DNA of 52,807 bases, filler included, from Dimargaris cristalligena (lineage: Eukaryota): assembly GCA_003614675.1 (NCBI GenBank). It is 2 parts of 2 records of this genome, joined end to end, with 100 filler letters (N's around TTAATTAATTAA, not from the genome) between each part and the next. Parts side by side here need not be neighbours in the genome. Positions count along the whole stretch, not along the records: positions 26,486 to 52,807 come from ML002543.1; 1 more part is not named here. The stretch is one strand, 5' to 3'. This document shows positions 21,287-51,264 of the stretch, in pieces. The translations under genes were made by a program, and so were the position numbers. How positions within the stretch are numbered: position 1 is the first letter of the stretch; every line of letters begins with the position of its first letter. A model generated the notes under the pieces. The model did no database searches. It saw only the letters and a list, made by a program, of their open reading frames with translations, and was not told the origin of the DNA.

Positions 21287-21758
21287 TACCAGCACTGCCC
21301 CCTCTTCGATTCCAGCATCAAGCTGTTCGTACACCACCCGTGTATTCTCTGTTCGTTTAGTCTCGTTAGTTGTTTTATTTTTGTTTGGGAAAGACCATCA
21401 ATCATATTTAAATATATATTCGGCCCCTCTGTTTTGAAGCATTTTAATTTCGGCAGATTTACTATTTCTATGAAACGTATTCTGGCACATTTTTTCCCGC
21501 TACTTTATCTAAATACCATCTCGACTTCTATTTGTAGGGCTTCTCACGGAGTCCTGTTCGCCCCTGAACAGTTTAAACCGCACGTAGCCTCTTAAATTGG
21601 CTACTCCTCAGTACTCCTGCTCCGTATTTTCAGGGGGCTTTGTTAATATCCTTTTAATTTTGACTGGATTATCCTCCCACCCAGTTGTCCTAGTCGAGAA
21701 TTTCTCATCAGCTGTCACTTCTAGCAGTTTGTGTTTCCATTATCTGCTTGCTAACATC

Positions 21759-23858
21759 ATGCCTCTTTCCAAGTCCACATGGTCCACTTTGGGACTATTA
21801 GGTTTAAGTTACCTTTCGGCCGCCGTTACCACCGCCCACCCCAATACTAACACTAATACTAATGCCGACGGTAACGACAACTTTTCCTCGTCTTCCAGTA
21901 TATATGACGACCACGGGCTCCTCCTTTCCTTCGGTCCCTCCGAGGCCTACGATTTCGGGCCCGGGAATTACGCTCGAACCATGACCCGGGATGCCCCCTC
22001 GGATAAATTAAGCGTGGCCAACGATTTTTTCCAGCAGCAGGGGTACGGCGAGCAAGACTACCAAATTGTTCAAGAAATGTACTCGTCTGATTTGCAAGTC
22101 ACCCACTACTACGCCCAGTTGCAGCACGACGGCTTGCCCGTGGTGAATGGGCATATGTCGGTCAATATTGACGAAGGGGGTCAGGTCGTCAGTGCGTCCA
22201 TGCTGCGATCAGATACCACGGCCAAGCCCCAGTCGGGCCAGTGTGCCGCCCGGTTAAACACAAACACTAGCCAGCGCAGCTCAACGAGTGGTAGTGATGC
22301 GGAGCCCGCCACCCCAGTGGATCCCCAGGCCGCCCTGCAGGCTTTTGCCGACTATGTTCAACGCCCCGATTGGGCCCAGGGCGTCAATACTAGCGCCGCT
22401 TTACAGTCCGGTAACCCCGGCGGACTTCGCTCGGCTGACCAAGCCACTTCCAACTCGGCACCCGCCGACGCCCCAATCATGGGCGACGCCCTCCACACCG
22501 TCGAAGCCGCGGCTTTGCGCCTCGACGACGGTACCTTCATTAAAGGCCGGAAAATTCGGGCCCGCGTGGATGACAACGAGGTCGAATCATTTGTTTCGGA
22601 TACCGACGGCAAAGTCCGGGCCCTCTATAACAACGCCAAAAGTTTCACCCCGAGCCGCTACAGGGTACTGCCCTATAATGTCGATATGGATCCCCAGCAG
22701 GATCTCCGGGAATGGGTGGAGGAACCCGGCGCGGACGACCCCCTCTTTCCCCAAGGCTGGCAAACTATGGGTGACCAGCGGTTTAGTGATACCCAGGGCA
22801 ATTATGTAGTGGTGCAGTCCCACCGGGACGTCTCCATCGACTGGAAACAAGCGCAACGCCCCCAGGGGGATGACCAAGGCCAATTCGACTTCCCCCTTGA
22901 TTTGAGTAGCGACCCCTCGAGTTACAGCGACGCTTCGGCCACCCAGGCTTTTTACCTAGGTAATCTATTCAGCGGGTTCGCCAAGGCGTACGGGTTTGAT
23001 GCCGCTTCGGGTAATTTCCAAGGCACACATACCGCGGAAGATAACGCGGGGAACGGAGTGGCCGGCGACCGGGTGATTATTTACGTTCAAGACGGCAAAG
23101 GGTTTAATAATGCTAATTTCGCCACCCCCGCGGACGGCCAAAGCCCCGTCATGAAAATGTACATTTGGAACAAAACGAAGCCCAGCCGCGATGGGGCGTT
23201 TGAAACGCCCATTTTCGTGCACGAATTTACGCACGGGGTTACGTCGCGTTTGACCGGGGGCCGAGCCGCGTCCAACTGTTTAACGCAGGGCGTGGCCGCG
23301 GGCATGGGGGAGGGATGGAGCGACATTATTGCCCTTAACTGGCGGCTACGGGCCGGTGATGAAAATGGCCGCAACGCGCACGGCCAGCCCGACCGCCCCT
23401 TAGGTATCGGCACCTACGGCAACGGCGGTAACACCGTCCGGCCCTATATTTATACGACCAACGTGGACCAGAACCCCCTCCAGTTTGGCCATCTCAGCGA
23501 CGCGCGGTTCAAAACCGTCCATAACATTGGGACCATTTGGACTACCATGTTGTACGAAATTCTGTGGAATTATATTGCGCAACACGGCCTGGAACCGGAC
23601 TTTATCCGGAACCCTACGAGTACTAAGGGCAATACCATGTTCATGCGCATGTTGTTCGCGTCGTGGAAACTCCAGCCCTGTAGCCCGGATTTTTTGCAGG
23701 CCCGCTCGGCTATGCTGCAGGCGGATAAACGGCTGCACCAGGAACAGAATAAGTGCCTGATTTGGCGGGGATTTGCGAAACGCGGCATGGGGGAAGATGC
23801 GACGTATTCATCGAGTGGCGTCGTGGAGAGCGACAAGGTACCAAGCGACTGCGAATAG
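21759..23858 (+). CDS. Secreted M36 metalloendopeptidase (fungalysin) with FTP propeptide, ~699 aa
   Basis: Signal peptide MPLSKSTWSTLGLLGLSYLSAAVTTA; propeptide VTHYYAQLQHDGLPVVNG; NNANFATPADG, HEFTH, GMGEGWSD, VHNIGTIW, LQPCSPDFLQARSA, IWRGFAKRGMG. Confidence 0.95.
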   Translation: MPLSKSTWSTLGLLGLSYLSAAVTTAHPNTNTNTNADGNDNFSSSSSIYDDHGLLLSFGPSEAYDFGPGNYARTMTRDAPSDKLSVANDFFQQQGYGEQDYQIVQEMYSSDLQVTHYYAQLQHDGLPVVNGHMSVNIDEGGQVVSASMLRSDTTAKPQSGQCAARLNTNTSQRSSTSGSDAEPATPVDPQAALQAFADYVQRPDWAQGVNTSAALQSGNPGGLRSADQATSNSAPADAPIMGDALHTVEAAALRLDDGTFIKGRKIRARVDDNEVESFVSDTDGKVRALYNNAKSFTPSRYRVLPYNVDMDPQQDLREWVEEPGADDPLFPQGWQTMGDQRFSDTQGNYVVVQSHRDVSIDWKQAQRPQGDDQGQFDFPLDLSSDPSSYSDASATQAFYLGNLFSGFAKAYGFDAASGNFQGTHTAEDNAGNGVAGDRVIIYVQDGKGFNNANFATPADGQSPVMKMYIWNKTKPSRDGAFETPIFVHEFTHGVTSRLTGGRAASNCLTQGVAAGMGEGWSDIIALNWRLRAGDENGRNAHGQPDRPLGIGTYGNGGNTVRPYIYTTNVDQNPLQFGHLSDARFKTVHNIGTIWTTMLYEILWNYIAQHGLEPDFIRNPTSTKGNTMFMRMLFASWKLQPCSPDFLQARSAMLQADKRLHQEQNKCLIWRGFAKRGMGEDATYSSSGVVESDKVPSDCE

Positions 23859-26385: not shown

Positions 26386-26485
26386 NNNNNNNNNNNNNNN
26401 NNNNNNNNNNNNNNNNNNNNNNNNNNNNNTTAATTAATTAANNNNNNNNNNNNNNNNNNNNNNNNNNNNNNNNNNNNNNNNNNNN
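26386..26485. other. Artificial contig-join spacer
   Basis: 44 N + TTAATTAATTAA (stops in all six frames) + 44 N = exactly 100 nt. Confidence 0.95.
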
Positions 26486-33384: not shown

Positions 33385-34512
33385 CTAAGCGTTGGACCTG
33401 AATGTGATCAAAATAATAGTAGAGGTATGCCTGGAGTTTCTCTCCTCCATTGGGTTAAAAATACCCGAAACATTGGGCTCCAAATCTAAGTCGTATAAGG
33501 GGGCCACTACCGCTGCAGGAGGTGGGCTGGGTAGGGAATTTATGGTGAGAGGGTGAGTGGCCATTTCTGGTTTGCGACCGGAGTGTTTTCTCTTGGACTG
33601 GCATTTGGGCTGCTTCACATCCATCATGGCGTAGATAAACCCGGGGAATGGAATGATTTCTTGGCGGTAGGTGGATATCATGGCGGGGTGAAAAAGCAAA
33701 GTGATCAGGTTCAAAACCCCTTGCAGCGTAAAAAGCAGTACCTGCAGGTAATCCAAGGCGGACGAAGCGGGGCCCGACTGAAACGACACCACGAGGGTAT
33801 TCACCGCATAGGGTAAATAGACAACGAACAGCATAACGGGGTAGGCCACGACCTTGCTGGCGTTTTGGATGAGTGCTGTGCGCCGGGTACCACACTCGGG
33901 ATCAAGTATCAGCTTGTTGATCCGATTCCGCGACTGGTATAGAGTAAAAAAGATGGCAATCACAACGGCCAAGACGTATAAAATGGCGGTATATAGCCAA
34001 AGGCACTTCCAACTGATATAAAACTGGAAGGCCATTTTCGAGTCGAGGGATACGGAGATGGAACTGCCTATTTTAAACCGCGCCCCTGGTAATATCAGGT
34101 ACCAGAAACTAACGAAAAAGGCCATCCCGGTTGCGATGTAGGGATACCAGGTGCGAATACGGGCCTTGGGAGGTAGGTGGTGGAAAATAACCAAGTGCAT
34201 ATCTAGCGCAATCATGACGTTGAGGCAGACGACCCACATGTGGCTGAACATATGGTACCACATAAAAAACCGGGCGGACTGGGGACCTGAGGGGGCGTGG
34301 GCCCCGAATGTGAGGGGATTCGTGAAGTAGCTGTCGATGAGGACCGGGAAATCGGCTACGCTAATCCAAAGGGCTAGGGAAAAGAATGGGGAGTTCGCGG
34401 CGGCGGGTTTCTTACTTCGTACCCGCAATATAAGTACAATGGATATAAAACTGCATAGGATGGACAAGGATGTCAACAGTTCGTAAACTATGTGAAAGGT
34501 CTGGTCCCTCAT
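33385..34512 (-). CDS. Seven-transmembrane GPCR-like protein (Git3/cAMP-receptor-like), 375 aa
   Basis: Seven hydrophobic segments; ISVADF in TM2, IALDMHLVIF at the end of TM3, AYPVMLFVVYLP in TM6, QGVLNLITLLFHP in TM7. Confidence 0.8.
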   Translation of the reverse strand: MRDQTFHIVYELLTSLSILCSFISIVLILRVRSKKPAAANSPFFSLALWISVADFPVLIDSYFTNPLTFGAHAPSGPQSARFFMWYHMFSHMWVVCLNVMIALDMHLVIFHHLPPKARIRTWYPYIATGMAFFVSFWYLILPGARFKIGSSISVSLDSKMAFQFYISWKCLWLYTAILYVLAVVIAIFFTLYQSRNRINKLILDPECGTRRTALIQNASKVVAYPVMLFVVYLPYAVNTLVVSFQSGPASSALDYLQVLLFTLQGVLNLITLLFHPAMISTYRQEIIPFPGFIYAMMDVKQPKCQSKRKHSGRKPEMATHPLTINSLPSPPPAAVVAPLYDLDLEPNVSGIFNPMEERNSRHTSTIILITFRSNA

Positions 34513-37500
34513 TATATAATAAGTGACTTAGTGTGATAATGGGCCGACGGCCGAAGAAAAATAATATAGACATGTAGGATGGTTGACAAGGGGAGTAGAC
34601 AAATAATTGGGTCGAAATTAGTGGGACAGGAATGAGCCGATAGAGAGCCTAGTTTAGCATTGTCTGGGCGTCAGCATTAATTAGATGGATAATATATGTA
34701 GGTATAGTAGTGGGAGCTCATGACGATTAAGGTATATATAATGAAGGTTTATATGAAAACACAGCTATAATATGAAATATTTACAATGGCAGAAATGAAA
34801 GAAAATTCGTGTAAAGTAGGTTCCAAGGGTGAACGGGGAACCCTTCGCTATATAAAGCGCGCTGGTTATGCGGCCGTAACGAAAATGAATGTCTCTCGGC
34901 CGATGGGACCCAATAGCAGCCATGGCTTGACCGTAGGAAAGTCCCGAAGGCTGTGGAGGCGATCATTTTCCCCCTAATAGTGTGAGGCTTGGCCCAAAAG
35001 ATGAATATAGATCCTCCGTATGCGACAATCCATCACTGATGGGCGGTAACCATTGGTGTGTTCCGTTGGATCTCGAGAGCGATTATCGCATTATTCGGCC
35101 ATATCAATGGGAGCGAATTGAGGGGGATACTGGTAGGATGACGCACAGTAGCTGAAAACTATAGTATATGCCAATGCTAGACAGTCAAGTTAATGAAAAT
35201 CCAACCATCTCGATTGTATACTATATATAATGGAATGCCCTGAATACATCGCATTCCTTTTCTCGCGCTCATTTGACTGCAGAAAAACATACTCGGCATA
35301 GGAAAGGTTCAGCTAGGCTATATAACGGGGGAAAATCCACCGGAGGAGGCACATAATACTGGTTAACAATGAGTCGCCCGCCTATTTACTCATACACTTA
35401 TCATTTACAGCCTTATACAGATGGTCCAACTACCACCCCTATGGTTTTTTACTATCATTCAAAGGCTCTATGGTGCGACCTGGTCCTTTAGTCCTCAAGC
35501 TATATACAGAACTTAAACGATCGGTCGCGGTGGAAAACGTGCAGTGAGGCGGCATTTGATGTCTAGTCGTATAAATGACAAAGGTATTCCTACGTTCCCC
35601 TGGAAATCGGGGTGTGGGTCAATCTAGTAAGGCTTCTAAGAGGAGTTAGGTAGGCCGGCCAAGCAGTAGAATCCATTTCCTGGTCAGTGTAATGGTGGTA
35701 TAATTGTACTGACATATACGGATACCCTCAATGACTTACCTGTTATACTGTGACCTCTTCTCATGGTGTATGTTAGACTTACCAACGCACCCCTTGCCCA
35801 CCCCAAATTAAACCAGTACTGCCTGCTATTAAAATCCGGATTTTTGCGTGATATTCACTTCCAGGAGATGTCCACGGAGTTGTAGTAATCACCGAATACT
35901 CTGGTTTTGTGTGCTACTGTTTCTCCAGGGCCCAAGCTCGCCCCTACCCCTCGCCAAGTATCCCGCGCTCACATCTCCTTGTATTTTATATTATTTTATT
36001 ATGCATGACAATGCTAGACGTGTCCTCATGGTGTAATAGAATAACGTCTAGGGTCATGATTTAAAAGGCATAGTGGTCAATAATAATCGACCAATAGACC
36101 ACTGCTAACACTTCCCGGATTGGTAAATCTAAATGGCTATATTATATCAAATGCTTAGAACTAAGGCTCTAGTTTAAAACGAATACACGAAGGCCATAAG
36201 AGAAGGGTAGCTGGCACTTATCTGGGAAGTTTTGGTAGTAATAACTCGGCCCATTTACCAGGATAACGAATGGGTGCTCTACAAAACTGTGGGTTGAGAA
36301 TTTGAATTCCTAGCCTGTAAAGACCATAAACCCGCAATATGAAACCTGGAACAGGTGGACCTGTATCGTCAATACCCGGCCATCTGGTGTAGTTGTGGAT
36401 TACATACCCGATTTGAGAGGGCGCGAATCTCGATGGTAGGTTGGCATTGCGGTGGTTGAGCCAGGTGATCGGCAGTTATAGCAGGTTATTAGGGGGTTTT
36501 CTACCCCAATATGGATCGGTAGAGAATATGGGGTATGGGCAAGAAAATCGGTCTTTAGCGGCAGGAACACTCTAATAGAGGCTAGTGAATGGTGAACCAT
36601 GTGCACCACTAGATACATATGCAACGCTTGTTCGGGACGTTAAAATTGATTAATTTACCAGTACGGCTGGGTTTGGGAGGTGATATTTATCCTTTAATGC
36701 GGATAGTGCTCGCCATTTCAATGGAATCTTGGCTGGTAGGGTATGGTTATGGAATCACGGATGGCTATAACTAGATAAACACAATTTAAACGGGACATTA
36801 TTTCGTTAGAATAGTAAAAAAACAATACACAACCGGCAGCCCTATCCATCAACAGTCAATGCATGTGGTGGCTGGGCAGTTAAATAGGTCACTGGTTTCG
36901 GATATAATGGAAACGAACGGCTTATGGAGAAAAGGGTTGGATAAAAGCAATACATTGTTTTATATGACTGGTCATAAGTAATCGTTGATTTCAGTTTTTA
37001 TCAATACCGGGAGCTACGTCAAGGGATGGGTTGGCAGTACCCATAAACTATATCCCTACCTGCACTATTCAAATACACAAATCTACGCTATATACTGGAA
37101 TAGTACTGTGAATAGACCACAGCTTCATTACTCACTAACGAGGATCCGAGCTATCATTCATCAATTTATGATATAGATTTTGGTTGCGATTTTACAGTGA
37201 GCGACTCCATAACTACTAAAGATTCGGCACATCCACACTGGGCCTTGTCATGTTAGAGGAAATGGTCATCATAGCTGTTTAATATTTTCGCTGATATAAA
37301 ACCGAAAAGACCCATGGCATACTTCTTAAGCCAAAGATGTTGAGCAAAGGTATACCGTCTTTCTTTTTATAGCCGGAAACTATGGTTCAGGAACTCCAGG
37401 AGTACATATAGTATAGCCATCATAATGGCCCAACCGTTACTCTCTGTTATATTTTCATTGAATATATATAAGATTGATGTATCAAGAGCGCTGCCCCTTT

Positions 37501-49372: not shown

Positions 49373-51264
49373 ATGCTGTCCCGGTTTCCTGTCATGGTCA
49401 GCCTGGGTTATCTAGCCCTACTTGCCCCTTTGGCCCAGTCCAATAACGTGTTTAACCTTGTGGCCAAACTGCCCTACGAAGTAGCTTTGAAAGTCATTTG
49501 CGATTTGCCTTATGAATATCTAGTTCAGATTAGCGACAGCGATATCGACAGGCATAGTGATGACCAGAGATGGGGTAGGGAAGCTCGGAGATGTTTATAC
49601 GACAGTAATCAACAGGTAAGTATAATAGTTTTCCAATTTAGCGCCATTTAGTCCCGCCGTTATAAGCCATTCTAGGGCCTATTGTGCGCGACTGATGGCC
49701 ACCCGCGGATTTATTCCACATTTGAATTTGGAATAGGGCTTATATAATGCACCTCCCCCCACTATCATTATATCCCACCCTTACTAATTTTCTCGGTTGG
49801 CTTATTTCATTCACAATCACACTACAATGTCACCTCTGCTAGGCTATTGCGGCATTCGTCCGAGACCCCGACAGCTACATCAACTCAGGTACTGACGATA
49901 ATGAGGCCTACCGTAAGTTCCTGGCCTTCCGTCCCTTGCTGGACAATTTTATCCGTCCGTTTTTCATTGACCACATGGTTCATTGGGACCTGCACAATAT
50001 TGGAATATCGCCCATGGGGGAGCATTATGCCAACTCGGAACATCACCAGCACGGTGAGTTTGCGCCCACCACCGTAGAAGCCAATGGGGATATTAATCCG
50101 GGCTCCCGATCAGAAATAGGGACAGAGCCGGACTCCGCCTGGTTGGAAAAATCCAAGGTATCCCTGTCGACGATGGGCCGCATCCGGGAGTTTCAAAAGG
50201 AGCTCCAACTGGCCCATATTCGGCGCCAGGTCCGTCCCCTTAGTACGCTCGAAGATCGCGAGTTGATGGTGTTCGTTCCACTCGTGGTCCTCGCCAAACA
50301 AGGAAAAGTCGATTGGCTTTGCCAGATGTACAACTACATGAACAGTCCTGGTTACCGGAAGGGCCTGGCCCGGTATTTGCCCACGGCCTTTCCCCAGTCG
50401 TATCTTGATATCGCCGCTTATCTTCGGATATACGCTAAGGGTCGAATGAATCCCAGCTGGGATCCGGAGCAACAGGTGGACATGGACATAGCCCTAGATG
50501 GCTTTCTCCAGGACCAGTTTCCTATTCAACTTATGAAGGCCGTTACCCAGTCCATCAGTATCGTATTGGTCAGCGCCCATAATCTCGAGGGATTAACCCA
50601 GTACTTCGACCATATTACTAAGCCGCAAGCCCGTCGCATAGGTATTGATCACTTAGTCCTCGCCATGGCCGCCCAACTCCAATCCCAGGCACTGATTGAC
50701 TTCGCCCAACCGCGCGTGCCTGCACGCTACTTGGAATCGATGATCAGATGCTCGGCATTATACGGCTGGTACACGGGGGCCCGCATCCTCCTAGACATCC
50801 ATCTGCGAGGACCCGCCCAGTCGAGGTTTAAAAGGTGCCAAACTCTGTTGCCGTATTGGAATCCCGTGTTTATCGACGCCAATGGTAAACTGATGTTCCG
50901 CTTCTACCGGGAATTAATTCCGGGGGTCTGGGAAACCCACCGACTAGGCCTGGCCCCCCCACTGCCCCCGAAGGACAGAGTGCGGGATGATGATACGACG
51001 CTCCCCTACCCCGTGTTCCGCCTCGTCCATCCCAAATCGCTCGTCCCCAAATCGGCTCACTTGGGGTTGGATCCGACGGTCGGTAAAAAAAGCGAAAGTC
51101 AGGTACGGCAGCCAATCCCTGCCTCACCATCGGATACGCTCACTCAGGCTAACTTGAAAATGGGGAGTGGAGTGGACCTGACCCAGAAACCATCCAACCG
51201 ACGTTTCTCATGGATCACTAACAAAACGGCTCGCCTCCGCAAACTTTTAAATAGAACAAACTAA
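49373..51264 (+). CDS. Putative secreted protein with N-terminal F-box-like motif; join(49373..49615,49843..51264), 554 aa
   Basis: A phase-0 intron (CAG/GTAAGT...CTAG) joins the two track ORFs in frame. Signal peptide MLSRFPVMVSLGYLALLAPLAQS, then FNLVAKLPYEVALKVICDLPYEYLVQIS...QRWGREARRCLY. Confidence 0.75.

Follow-up and report, generated by a model that had tools for sequence, protein, structure and literature searches.

F-boxes bind Skp1, in the cytosol as well as in the nucleus. In the Hessian fly (Mayetiola destructor), the accessible text of the source describes SSGP-71 as a family of 426 members, mostly composed of a signal peptide plus F-box, which binds a Skp1-like protein (PMC10317074). 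For the same family (Zhao et al., 2015), the accessible parts of a review mention LRRs behind the F-box as well as some F-box-less members (PMC4617103). The gene analyzed here originates from the mycoparasitic fungus Dimargaris cristalligena and lies in a stretch of 52,807 nucleotides, the whole of which is referred to as the window. As far as the accessible descriptions of SSGP-71 reach, the family around this gene resembles it in belonging to a eukaryotic parasite, in being large and paralogous and in combining a (here predicted) signal with an N-terminal F-box and a variable C-terminal domain; F-box-less members exist in both, and both are proposed mimics of host SCF adaptors. SSGP-71 passes with insect saliva into wheat, whereas the Dimargaris proteins would pass from fungus into fungus. 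Moreover, SSGP-71 carries about 13 LRRs, whereas neither the window protein nor any of 35 paralogue bodies yielded an LRR family and both structural models are all-helical, and Skp binding is demonstrated for SSGP-71 in the accessible text, whereas it is predicted from sequence for the Dimargaris F-boxes. The similarity of both families is likely a result of convergence.

Bacterial pathogens feature comparable proteins. In the accessible part of the review, which includes a description of RipG7, the Ralstonia GALA/RipG proteins combine a pathogen F-box with a target-binding domain, occur as several paralogues and are recruited to the host SCF, as proposed for Dimargaris (PMC4617103). They differ in being bacterial, in being injected by type III/IV systems without an ER signal peptide and, in the case of GALA, in having an LRR body. 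Agrobacterium VirF, likewise a pathogen F-box effector injected by type III/IV systems, is presumably comparable to the Dimargaris family, too. Legionella AnkB shares the arrangement of an F-box and a helical repeat domain, according to the accessible text (PMC2790608), and its F-box (PDB 5k35) matches the 36-row family profile described below with E 0.003. Nevertheless, AnkB is one individual Dot/Icm substrate of a bacterium and has genuine ankyrin repeats, whereas 35 of 35 Dimargaris bodies are without a Pfam ankyrin match. Ordinary fungal SCF adaptors of the Cdc4 and Dia2 type exhibit the same F-box motif but have no signal peptide, a long frame behind the F-box and WD40 or LRR bodies; the genome contains 15 genes of this kind apart from the family. 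The top neighbors of the helical body are giant-virus and chlorophyte proteins of the F-box/ankyrin type (language-model score 0.89; Foldseek against BFVD, best E 0.29), all of them below significance with a TM of about 0.2, and neither shared ancestry nor transfer is established by them. To our knowledge, these viral and algal proteins are cytosolic, and no signal peptide is to be expected in them. The Dimargaris proteins belong neither to SSGP-71, as they have no LRRs, nor to the F-box proteins with ankyrin repeats, as an ankyrin match is missing; by analogy, they might work like SSGP-71, RipG, AnkB and VirF.

Gene Structure and Genomic Context

In the window, a run of N (26386-26485) connects two contigs from a single genome, and no neighborhood across this join is implied. 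On the second contig, 3' of a radical-SAM gene, the gene starts with an ATG at 49373 and comprises exon 1 (49373-49615) and exon 2 (49843-51264), which give a spliced product of 554 aa. The exons are separated by a phase-0 intron of 227 nt (49616-49842, + strand) directly behind the F-box, with a CAG/GTAAGT donor and a CTAG acceptor. Among 36 open-frame GT-AG pairings, the chosen splice is the longest with a GTAAGT donor. An identical junction is found in two deposited gene models, RKP37108.1 (547 aa, starting at Met8) and KAJ1989202.1 (554 aa from Met1), which differ from each other at one residue; both are predictions, and the junction is likewise predicted. RKP37108.1 bears the UniRef name 'F-box domain-containing protein'. 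The gene is a real two-exon gene of D. cristalligena coding for 554 aa. The coordinates, the reading and the spliced protein of the first-pass annotation were borne out by the open-frame splice and the junction shared by two gene models, and the motifs it had quoted are present in the sequence.

Contamination by host DNA is unlikely, as the gene occurs in two assemblies and shares its contig with STT3, MIF4G-domain and radical-SAM housekeeping genes. Elsewhere in the window, positions 21588-23858 (+) encode a metalloprotease of the fungalysin (M36) family, the start of which is signal-like; this family is reported to be expanded in Dimargaritales. Besides, a 380-aa frame at 33385-34527 (-) features several membrane-helix-like hydrophobic stretches and no Pfam family.

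F-box Identity

The first-pass annotation had read an F-box pattern behind the N-terminal peptide. A divergent F-box (LPYE ... LP ... W) that aligns with paralogue F-boxes was assigned to residues 29-76 (49457-49600, +). It harbors a 7-residue insertion at residues 58-64 (49544-49564, +), which is a gap in the other 35 of 35 rows of the F-box alignment; the paralogues have V-S/N/C at this site. The distance of about 10 aa previously given between YLVQIS and QRWGR indeed amounts to 10 residues and represents a net insertion of seven residues compared to the paralogues. Pfam searches with the window protein and its exons (E ≤ 10, E ≤ 5) retrieved 0 families, so that the proposed HMMER comparison with PF00646 and PF12937 yielded no match in the window protein at E ≤ 10. 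Likewise, when the F-box piece was compared with PDB sequences by phmmer, there was no F-box among the two matches, with a methylase at E 0.03. The pattern alone is therefore not above chance in standard searches, whereas a leave-one-out comparison with the profile of 35 paralogues resulted in 10.1 bits for the window piece and exceeded 1000 of 1000 shuffles, the best of which reached 8.4. This score is the lowest of the 36 rows, and no branch is longer than that of the window piece in a tree computed from 61 F-box pieces, which is based on 45 columns with 28 of 58 inner branches open and neither shows nor excludes a single origin.

The L-P-x-E, I/V, L-P and W positions are retained in the window F-box. 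For residues 1-135, an F-box cluster was ranked first in the ESM Atlas (0.85), which is a lead only. The AlphaFold2 model of the window protein (pTM 0.70) predicts helices at residues 35-43, 47-58, and 62-88, with a pLDDT of 64-91 in the F-box region. Model residues 24-78 align with the 48-residue chain E of the Skp1-F-box entry 5ibk over 46 residues (Z 5.4, rmsd 2.9), at rank 23 and below the level that the tool takes for a clear match.

The identity of the module was settled by the paralogues. When the genome was searched with no more than exon 2, 20 matches were obtained and all of them scored; most are preceded by a short frame that begins with hydrophobic residues and contains an LPxE motif. 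Of the first exons of paralogues selected by exon 2, 13 were scanned, and 10 match PF00646/PF12937 at E ≤ 0.18, one of them above the curated cut-off; no F-box match was obtained for L002, L010, and L004. An F-box match above the curated cut-off is present in protein P0012. Most paralogue F-boxes are below the Pfam cut-off, which counts against a function as F-box effectors.

When the window piece was combined with 12 body-selected paralogues into a profile, solved chains of Dia2 and Fbxo4 (two chains of the latter) were at the top (E 5e-4), with FliG at ranks 4-6 and then Cdc4, Fbw7, and FBXL2; inclusion of the signal part brings bacterial FliG to the first place. The fact that FliG scores level with F-boxes in these non-circular profiles is a further point against an F-box effector. 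The 36-row family profile ranks 31 solved F-box proteins first (E 7e-8 to 0.018) with 36-41 of 48 positions covered, and it is partly circular, as 30 rows were taken from the PF12937 search. FliG was rejected as the true relative of exon 1, since the larger profile places it at rank 32, with coverage of the first 23 positions only. As judged from these profiles, the family evidence identifies the N-terminal module as an F-box; the window copy is one by descent and the most drifted of those seen. Being the weakest F-box of 36, it is the likeliest member to have lost or changed Skp1 binding.

Signal-Like N-terminus and Family Plan

Residues 1-23 (49373-49441, +) resemble a signal peptide with R4 as basic n-region residue, a hydrophobic core (9-residue hydropathy 2.08) and a (-3,-1) site at A21-Q22-S23, i.e., A-Q-S/N; Met8 at 49394 is an alternative start. 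Outside the N-terminus, the best 19-residue hydropathy is 1.32, and no other transmembrane-like stretch was found in the window protein. The signal call is made by a hydropathy heuristic that 14.3% of random frames pass, which counts against a secreted effector. N-termini of the same type were recognized in the paralogues by this heuristic. In a set of 44 family members, for which hydrophobicity and low acidity were selection criteria, 36 carry K/R in residues 1-7, a feature that was not selected for. A 19-residue hydropathy of 1.9 is reached by seven of the 44 (transmembrane-like), the other 37 being below this value, and the (-3,-1) site, a lax test, occurs in all 44. By this heuristic, which a part of random frames passes as well, the 23-aa peptide of the first-pass annotation and the N-termini of the 44 members feature the n-, h- and c-regions of a putative cleavable signal.

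The genome search with PF12937 (E ≤ 1) gave 65 places, all of which were examined. A signal-like start 20-130 residues upstream in frame was present in 35 of them, and 31 of these also have a phase-0 donor 40-50 codons past the F-box start. Among random frames of the same loci (5000 draws), 14.3% passed the signal test, 6.8% the donor test, and 1.9% both. The 77 F-box-like pieces scored include 49 with a signal-like start, 44 of which also feature the donor (42 of the 44 stop-free before it), and PF00646 adds 16 new places (12 signal-like, 11 of these with donor). The sum of these 44 and 11 loci, each of which combines an F-box with a signal-like start and a phase-0 donor, is a lower bound. 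Only one of the 15 ordinary F-box genes of the genome, recognized by a long open frame behind the F-box, passed the signal test. The genome-wide count of signal plus F-box genes therefore speaks for a fixed family plan rather than a one-off: at least 55 loci share, as predicted from the sequence, a signal-like N-terminus, an F-box, a phase-0 intron and then a helical body of ~350 aa.

Eight close paralogue pairs are under purifying selection. The dN/dS of the F-box ranges from 0.09 to 0.41 in these pairs (47-49 codons, noisy) and that of the body from 0.29 to 0.58 in the seven computable ones, with the F-box value being lower in five and about equal in two of the seven. Stops, frameshifts or missing starts were found in L009, L036, L039, L050, L086, L118, and L121. 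Contigs C136, C161, and C153 harbor at least two family members each, which are adjacent on C136 and C153. Broken copies and tandem arrangement together form a pattern as in birth-and-death evolution, and the family is regarded as fast-evolving. Locus L004 (265-1867, -; protein P0008) combines a signal-like start with a family body but has no recognizable F-box; thus, the body can persist alone, which counts against a role as SCF adaptor mimics.

Some deposited models lack or cut the signal-F-box exon, and the family may have been overlooked for this reason. The model P0005 of L003 (RKP33876.1) begins inside the body although the signal and F-box exon lies upstream, half of the F-box is spliced out in P0007 of L005 (KAJ1987206.1), and the signal-F-box start is missing in P0011. 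A phmmer search over 1.84 billion representatives led to seven matches, all of D. cristalligena. Word-index searches gave one, one and three matches, again all of D. cristalligena, and one search missed paralogues contained in its own query alignment; these searches are hence too insensitive to call the family absent from other Dimargaritales.

Helical Body and Tail

The presumed target-binding part is the body at residues 82-440 (49843-50919, +), which is all-helical in the model. The second exons form 10 BLAST clusters (17, 8, 3, 2 and six singles). Cluster profiles reach several single bodies with scores above the best of 720 shuffles, while profile-profile scores between the clusters are low (probability 2-48%). 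An alignment of 25 bodies features a common F-x-P motif, two conserved cysteines and a closing hairpin. According to this alignment and the reach of the cluster profiles, most bodies appear to be members of one diverged superfamily. Cys384 (50749-50751, +) is kept in at least 90% of the 25 aligned bodies; Cys413 (50836-50838, +) is invariant among them and precedes the PxxLDxxGxxxxRxY hairpin, for which the model shows strands at 423-425 and 431-436. Both cysteines are maintained across bodies that are mostly <25% identical, along with a C-terminal CAxxxGW...C...LDxxG motif. Such a conserved pair would suit an oxidizing extracellular site as well as the host cytosol, which counts against an action inside the host cell.

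Segments of the body had been likened to degenerate ankyrin repeats in the first-pass annotation, a comparison that is not confirmed, as ankyrin families were missing from the window protein and from 35 of 35 bodies and the ankyrin rows of the fold and profile searches were sub-threshold. The window protein contains 0 Pfam, ankyrin or LRR families, and the 35 paralogue bodies revealed no Pfam family above the cut-off and no ankyrin or LRR match at E ≤ 0.05. None of the 40 PF12796 matches in the genome is located on C336, the contig of the window gene. A paralogue body was modeled as a helical bundle (pTM 0.87). Foldseek gave no match at E ≤ 0.001 for both models against the PDB and for the paralogue body against BFVD, and VIA-align of both models gave no Z ≥ 8, the absence of a match being no proof of a new fold. 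The profiles of the body alignments reached best E-values of 0.036 and 0.012 (DARPin) against PDB sequences. Weak ankyrin rows included IkBa in VIA-align of the window model (Z 6.3, rmsd 5.7, 159 aligned), the language-model Atlas (0.89) and Foldseek (E ≥ 0.29), and the best Z of the paralogue body (5.2) was to a non-ankyrin protein. As several methods repeatedly list ankyrin proteins in their best, though weak, rows, a remote ankyrin ancestry of the body is possible.

The copy-specific tail (residues 441-554; 50920-51264, +, with the stop codon at 51262-51264) is mostly disordered, with a pLDDT < 50 over residues 441-539, and not conserved in paralogues. The basic end noticed earlier is present but situated in this poorly predicted stretch private to the window copy.

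Proposed Mechanism and Alternative Explanations

According to the accessible text on the order, Dimargaritales are fungal parasites which use an appressorium and a haustorium (PMC9866270). We assign a probability of roughly 0.55 to the reading that the window gene encodes an atypical member of a secreted F-box effector family, which would be delivered into the fungal host as an SCF adaptor mimic. For the typical members, the same reading is quite probable. The odds are slightly better than even that secreted F-box proteins, more than 55 in number and equipped with a hitherto undescribed helical recognition domain, cross the haustorial interface and reprogramme the host SCF ligase. The N-terminal peptide, as suggested by the features shared in the family, would route the protein through the ER and then be cleaved off. 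The protein might be released at the haustorium and enter the cytoplasm of the host fungus. There, the F-box, identified by profile at the level of the family, would dock to host Skp1-Cul1, and the variable helical body may select a host protein for ubiquitination by the host SCF ligase, in analogy to SSGP-71, GALA/RipG, and AnkB. As Skp1 is cytosolic and nuclear, an F-box behind a secretion signal would be without a partner in the secretory pathway of the parasite, and delivery to a host is the simplest reading. The mycoparasite F-box effector of the first-pass annotation is consistent with the haustorial lifestyle, the F-box identity by family and the signal plus F-box family, whereas its delivery and Skp1 binding are inferred.

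Several other explanations have to be weighed against delivered SCF adaptor mimics. The family might consist of F-box effectors while the window copy has lost Skp1 binding and acts by its body alone or is decaying. The weakest F-box of 36, the unique insertion and the longest branch would fit such a loss, as would the F-box-less paralogue L004 and several broken paralogues; SSGP-71 includes F-box-less members as well, according to the accessible part of the review (PMC4617103). Nevertheless, both assemblies carry an intact frame, with a difference of one residue, the L-P-x-E, V/I, L-P and W positions persist, and three model helices with a pLDDT of 64-91 align to a solved F-box-sized chain, which makes a loss of binding in this copy unlikely. 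A delivered F-box could also block host Skp1 as a sponge or SCF inhibitor, with the body as a stabilizer instead of a substrate receptor. This would require the same plan of signal and F-box and would agree with a body without a known substrate-binding fold; still, one or few genes would suffice for it, whereas at least 55 loci and 10 body clusters, whose rate of evolution equals or exceeds that of the F-box, are in better agreement with a multitude of targets, and we regard such an inhibitor as rather unlikely.

Other explanations concern the place of action. If the start of the proteins were an uncleaved anchor, an organelle signal or skipped, they would act in the parasite cytosol as a lineage-specific expansion of ordinary SCF adaptors. 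Orphan F-box expansions are documented for other zygomycetes in the accessible text of the source, with 31 members in Choanephora (PMC5238444), secretion is predicted from the sequence, and the genome encodes its own Skp1 genes. However, the short core, the basic n-region and the (-3,-1) site point to a cleavable signal, with seven of 44 members being transmembrane-like, a signal-like start occurs in just one of 15 ordinary F-box genes of the same genome, and the signal is kept across bodies that are <25% identical; an action within the parasite is therefore very unlikely. Finally, the F-box-derived module may be devoid of Skp1 binding in the whole family and, in extracellular proteins acting at the host surface, serve for folding, as a pro-module or for uptake. 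The sub-threshold scores of most family F-boxes and two conserved cysteines that could form a disulfide would match this assumption. Against it, 36-41 of the 48 profile positions are covered in the matches of the family to solved F-boxes, and constraint on the F-box exon is no weaker than on the body, so that such a repurposing is highly improbable. Delivery of SCF adaptor mimics into the host fungus is accordingly preferred.

Relation to Published Work and Significance

A literature search revealed no description of the Dimargaris family or of a fungal secreted F-box family, most subscription journals being outside its coverage. In their accessible text, the two genome papers considered discuss proteases, chitinases and secondary metabolites (PMC9866270, PMC6784888). 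The term 'F-box' does not appear in the accessible main text or text supplements of either paper, whose other tables could still list Pfam counts. As near cases, the accessible texts report 31 orphan F-box genes in Choanephora, which are not called secreted (PMC5238444), and Fusarium proteins that contain an LPxE motif but no secretion signal (PMC3914424). Single members of the Dimargaris family are already auto-named 'F-box domain-containing' in databases. The family described here is a large fungal one in which a predicted signal and an F-box are joined to an uncharacterized body.

The control of hosts by haustorial mycoparasites has been little studied. The signal plus F-box family makes the delivery of effectors into the host cytoplasm by fungus-on-fungus parasites testable, as Skp1 binding can be assayed directly; the individual bodies, in turn, should each lead to a target in the host. 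If the preferred reading is true, a fungus would, with a new recognition domain, have arrived at the same ubiquitin-ligase mimicry as bacteria, viruses, and a gall midge. The family would then represent an independently evolved fungal counterpart of Hessian fly SSGP-71 and host-cytoplasmic effectors of a fungus-on-fungus parasite.

Besides, a second Skp1-like gene of the genome was noticed on contig C314 (L125, 718-1350, +), with a long low-complexity insertion between two conserved halves.
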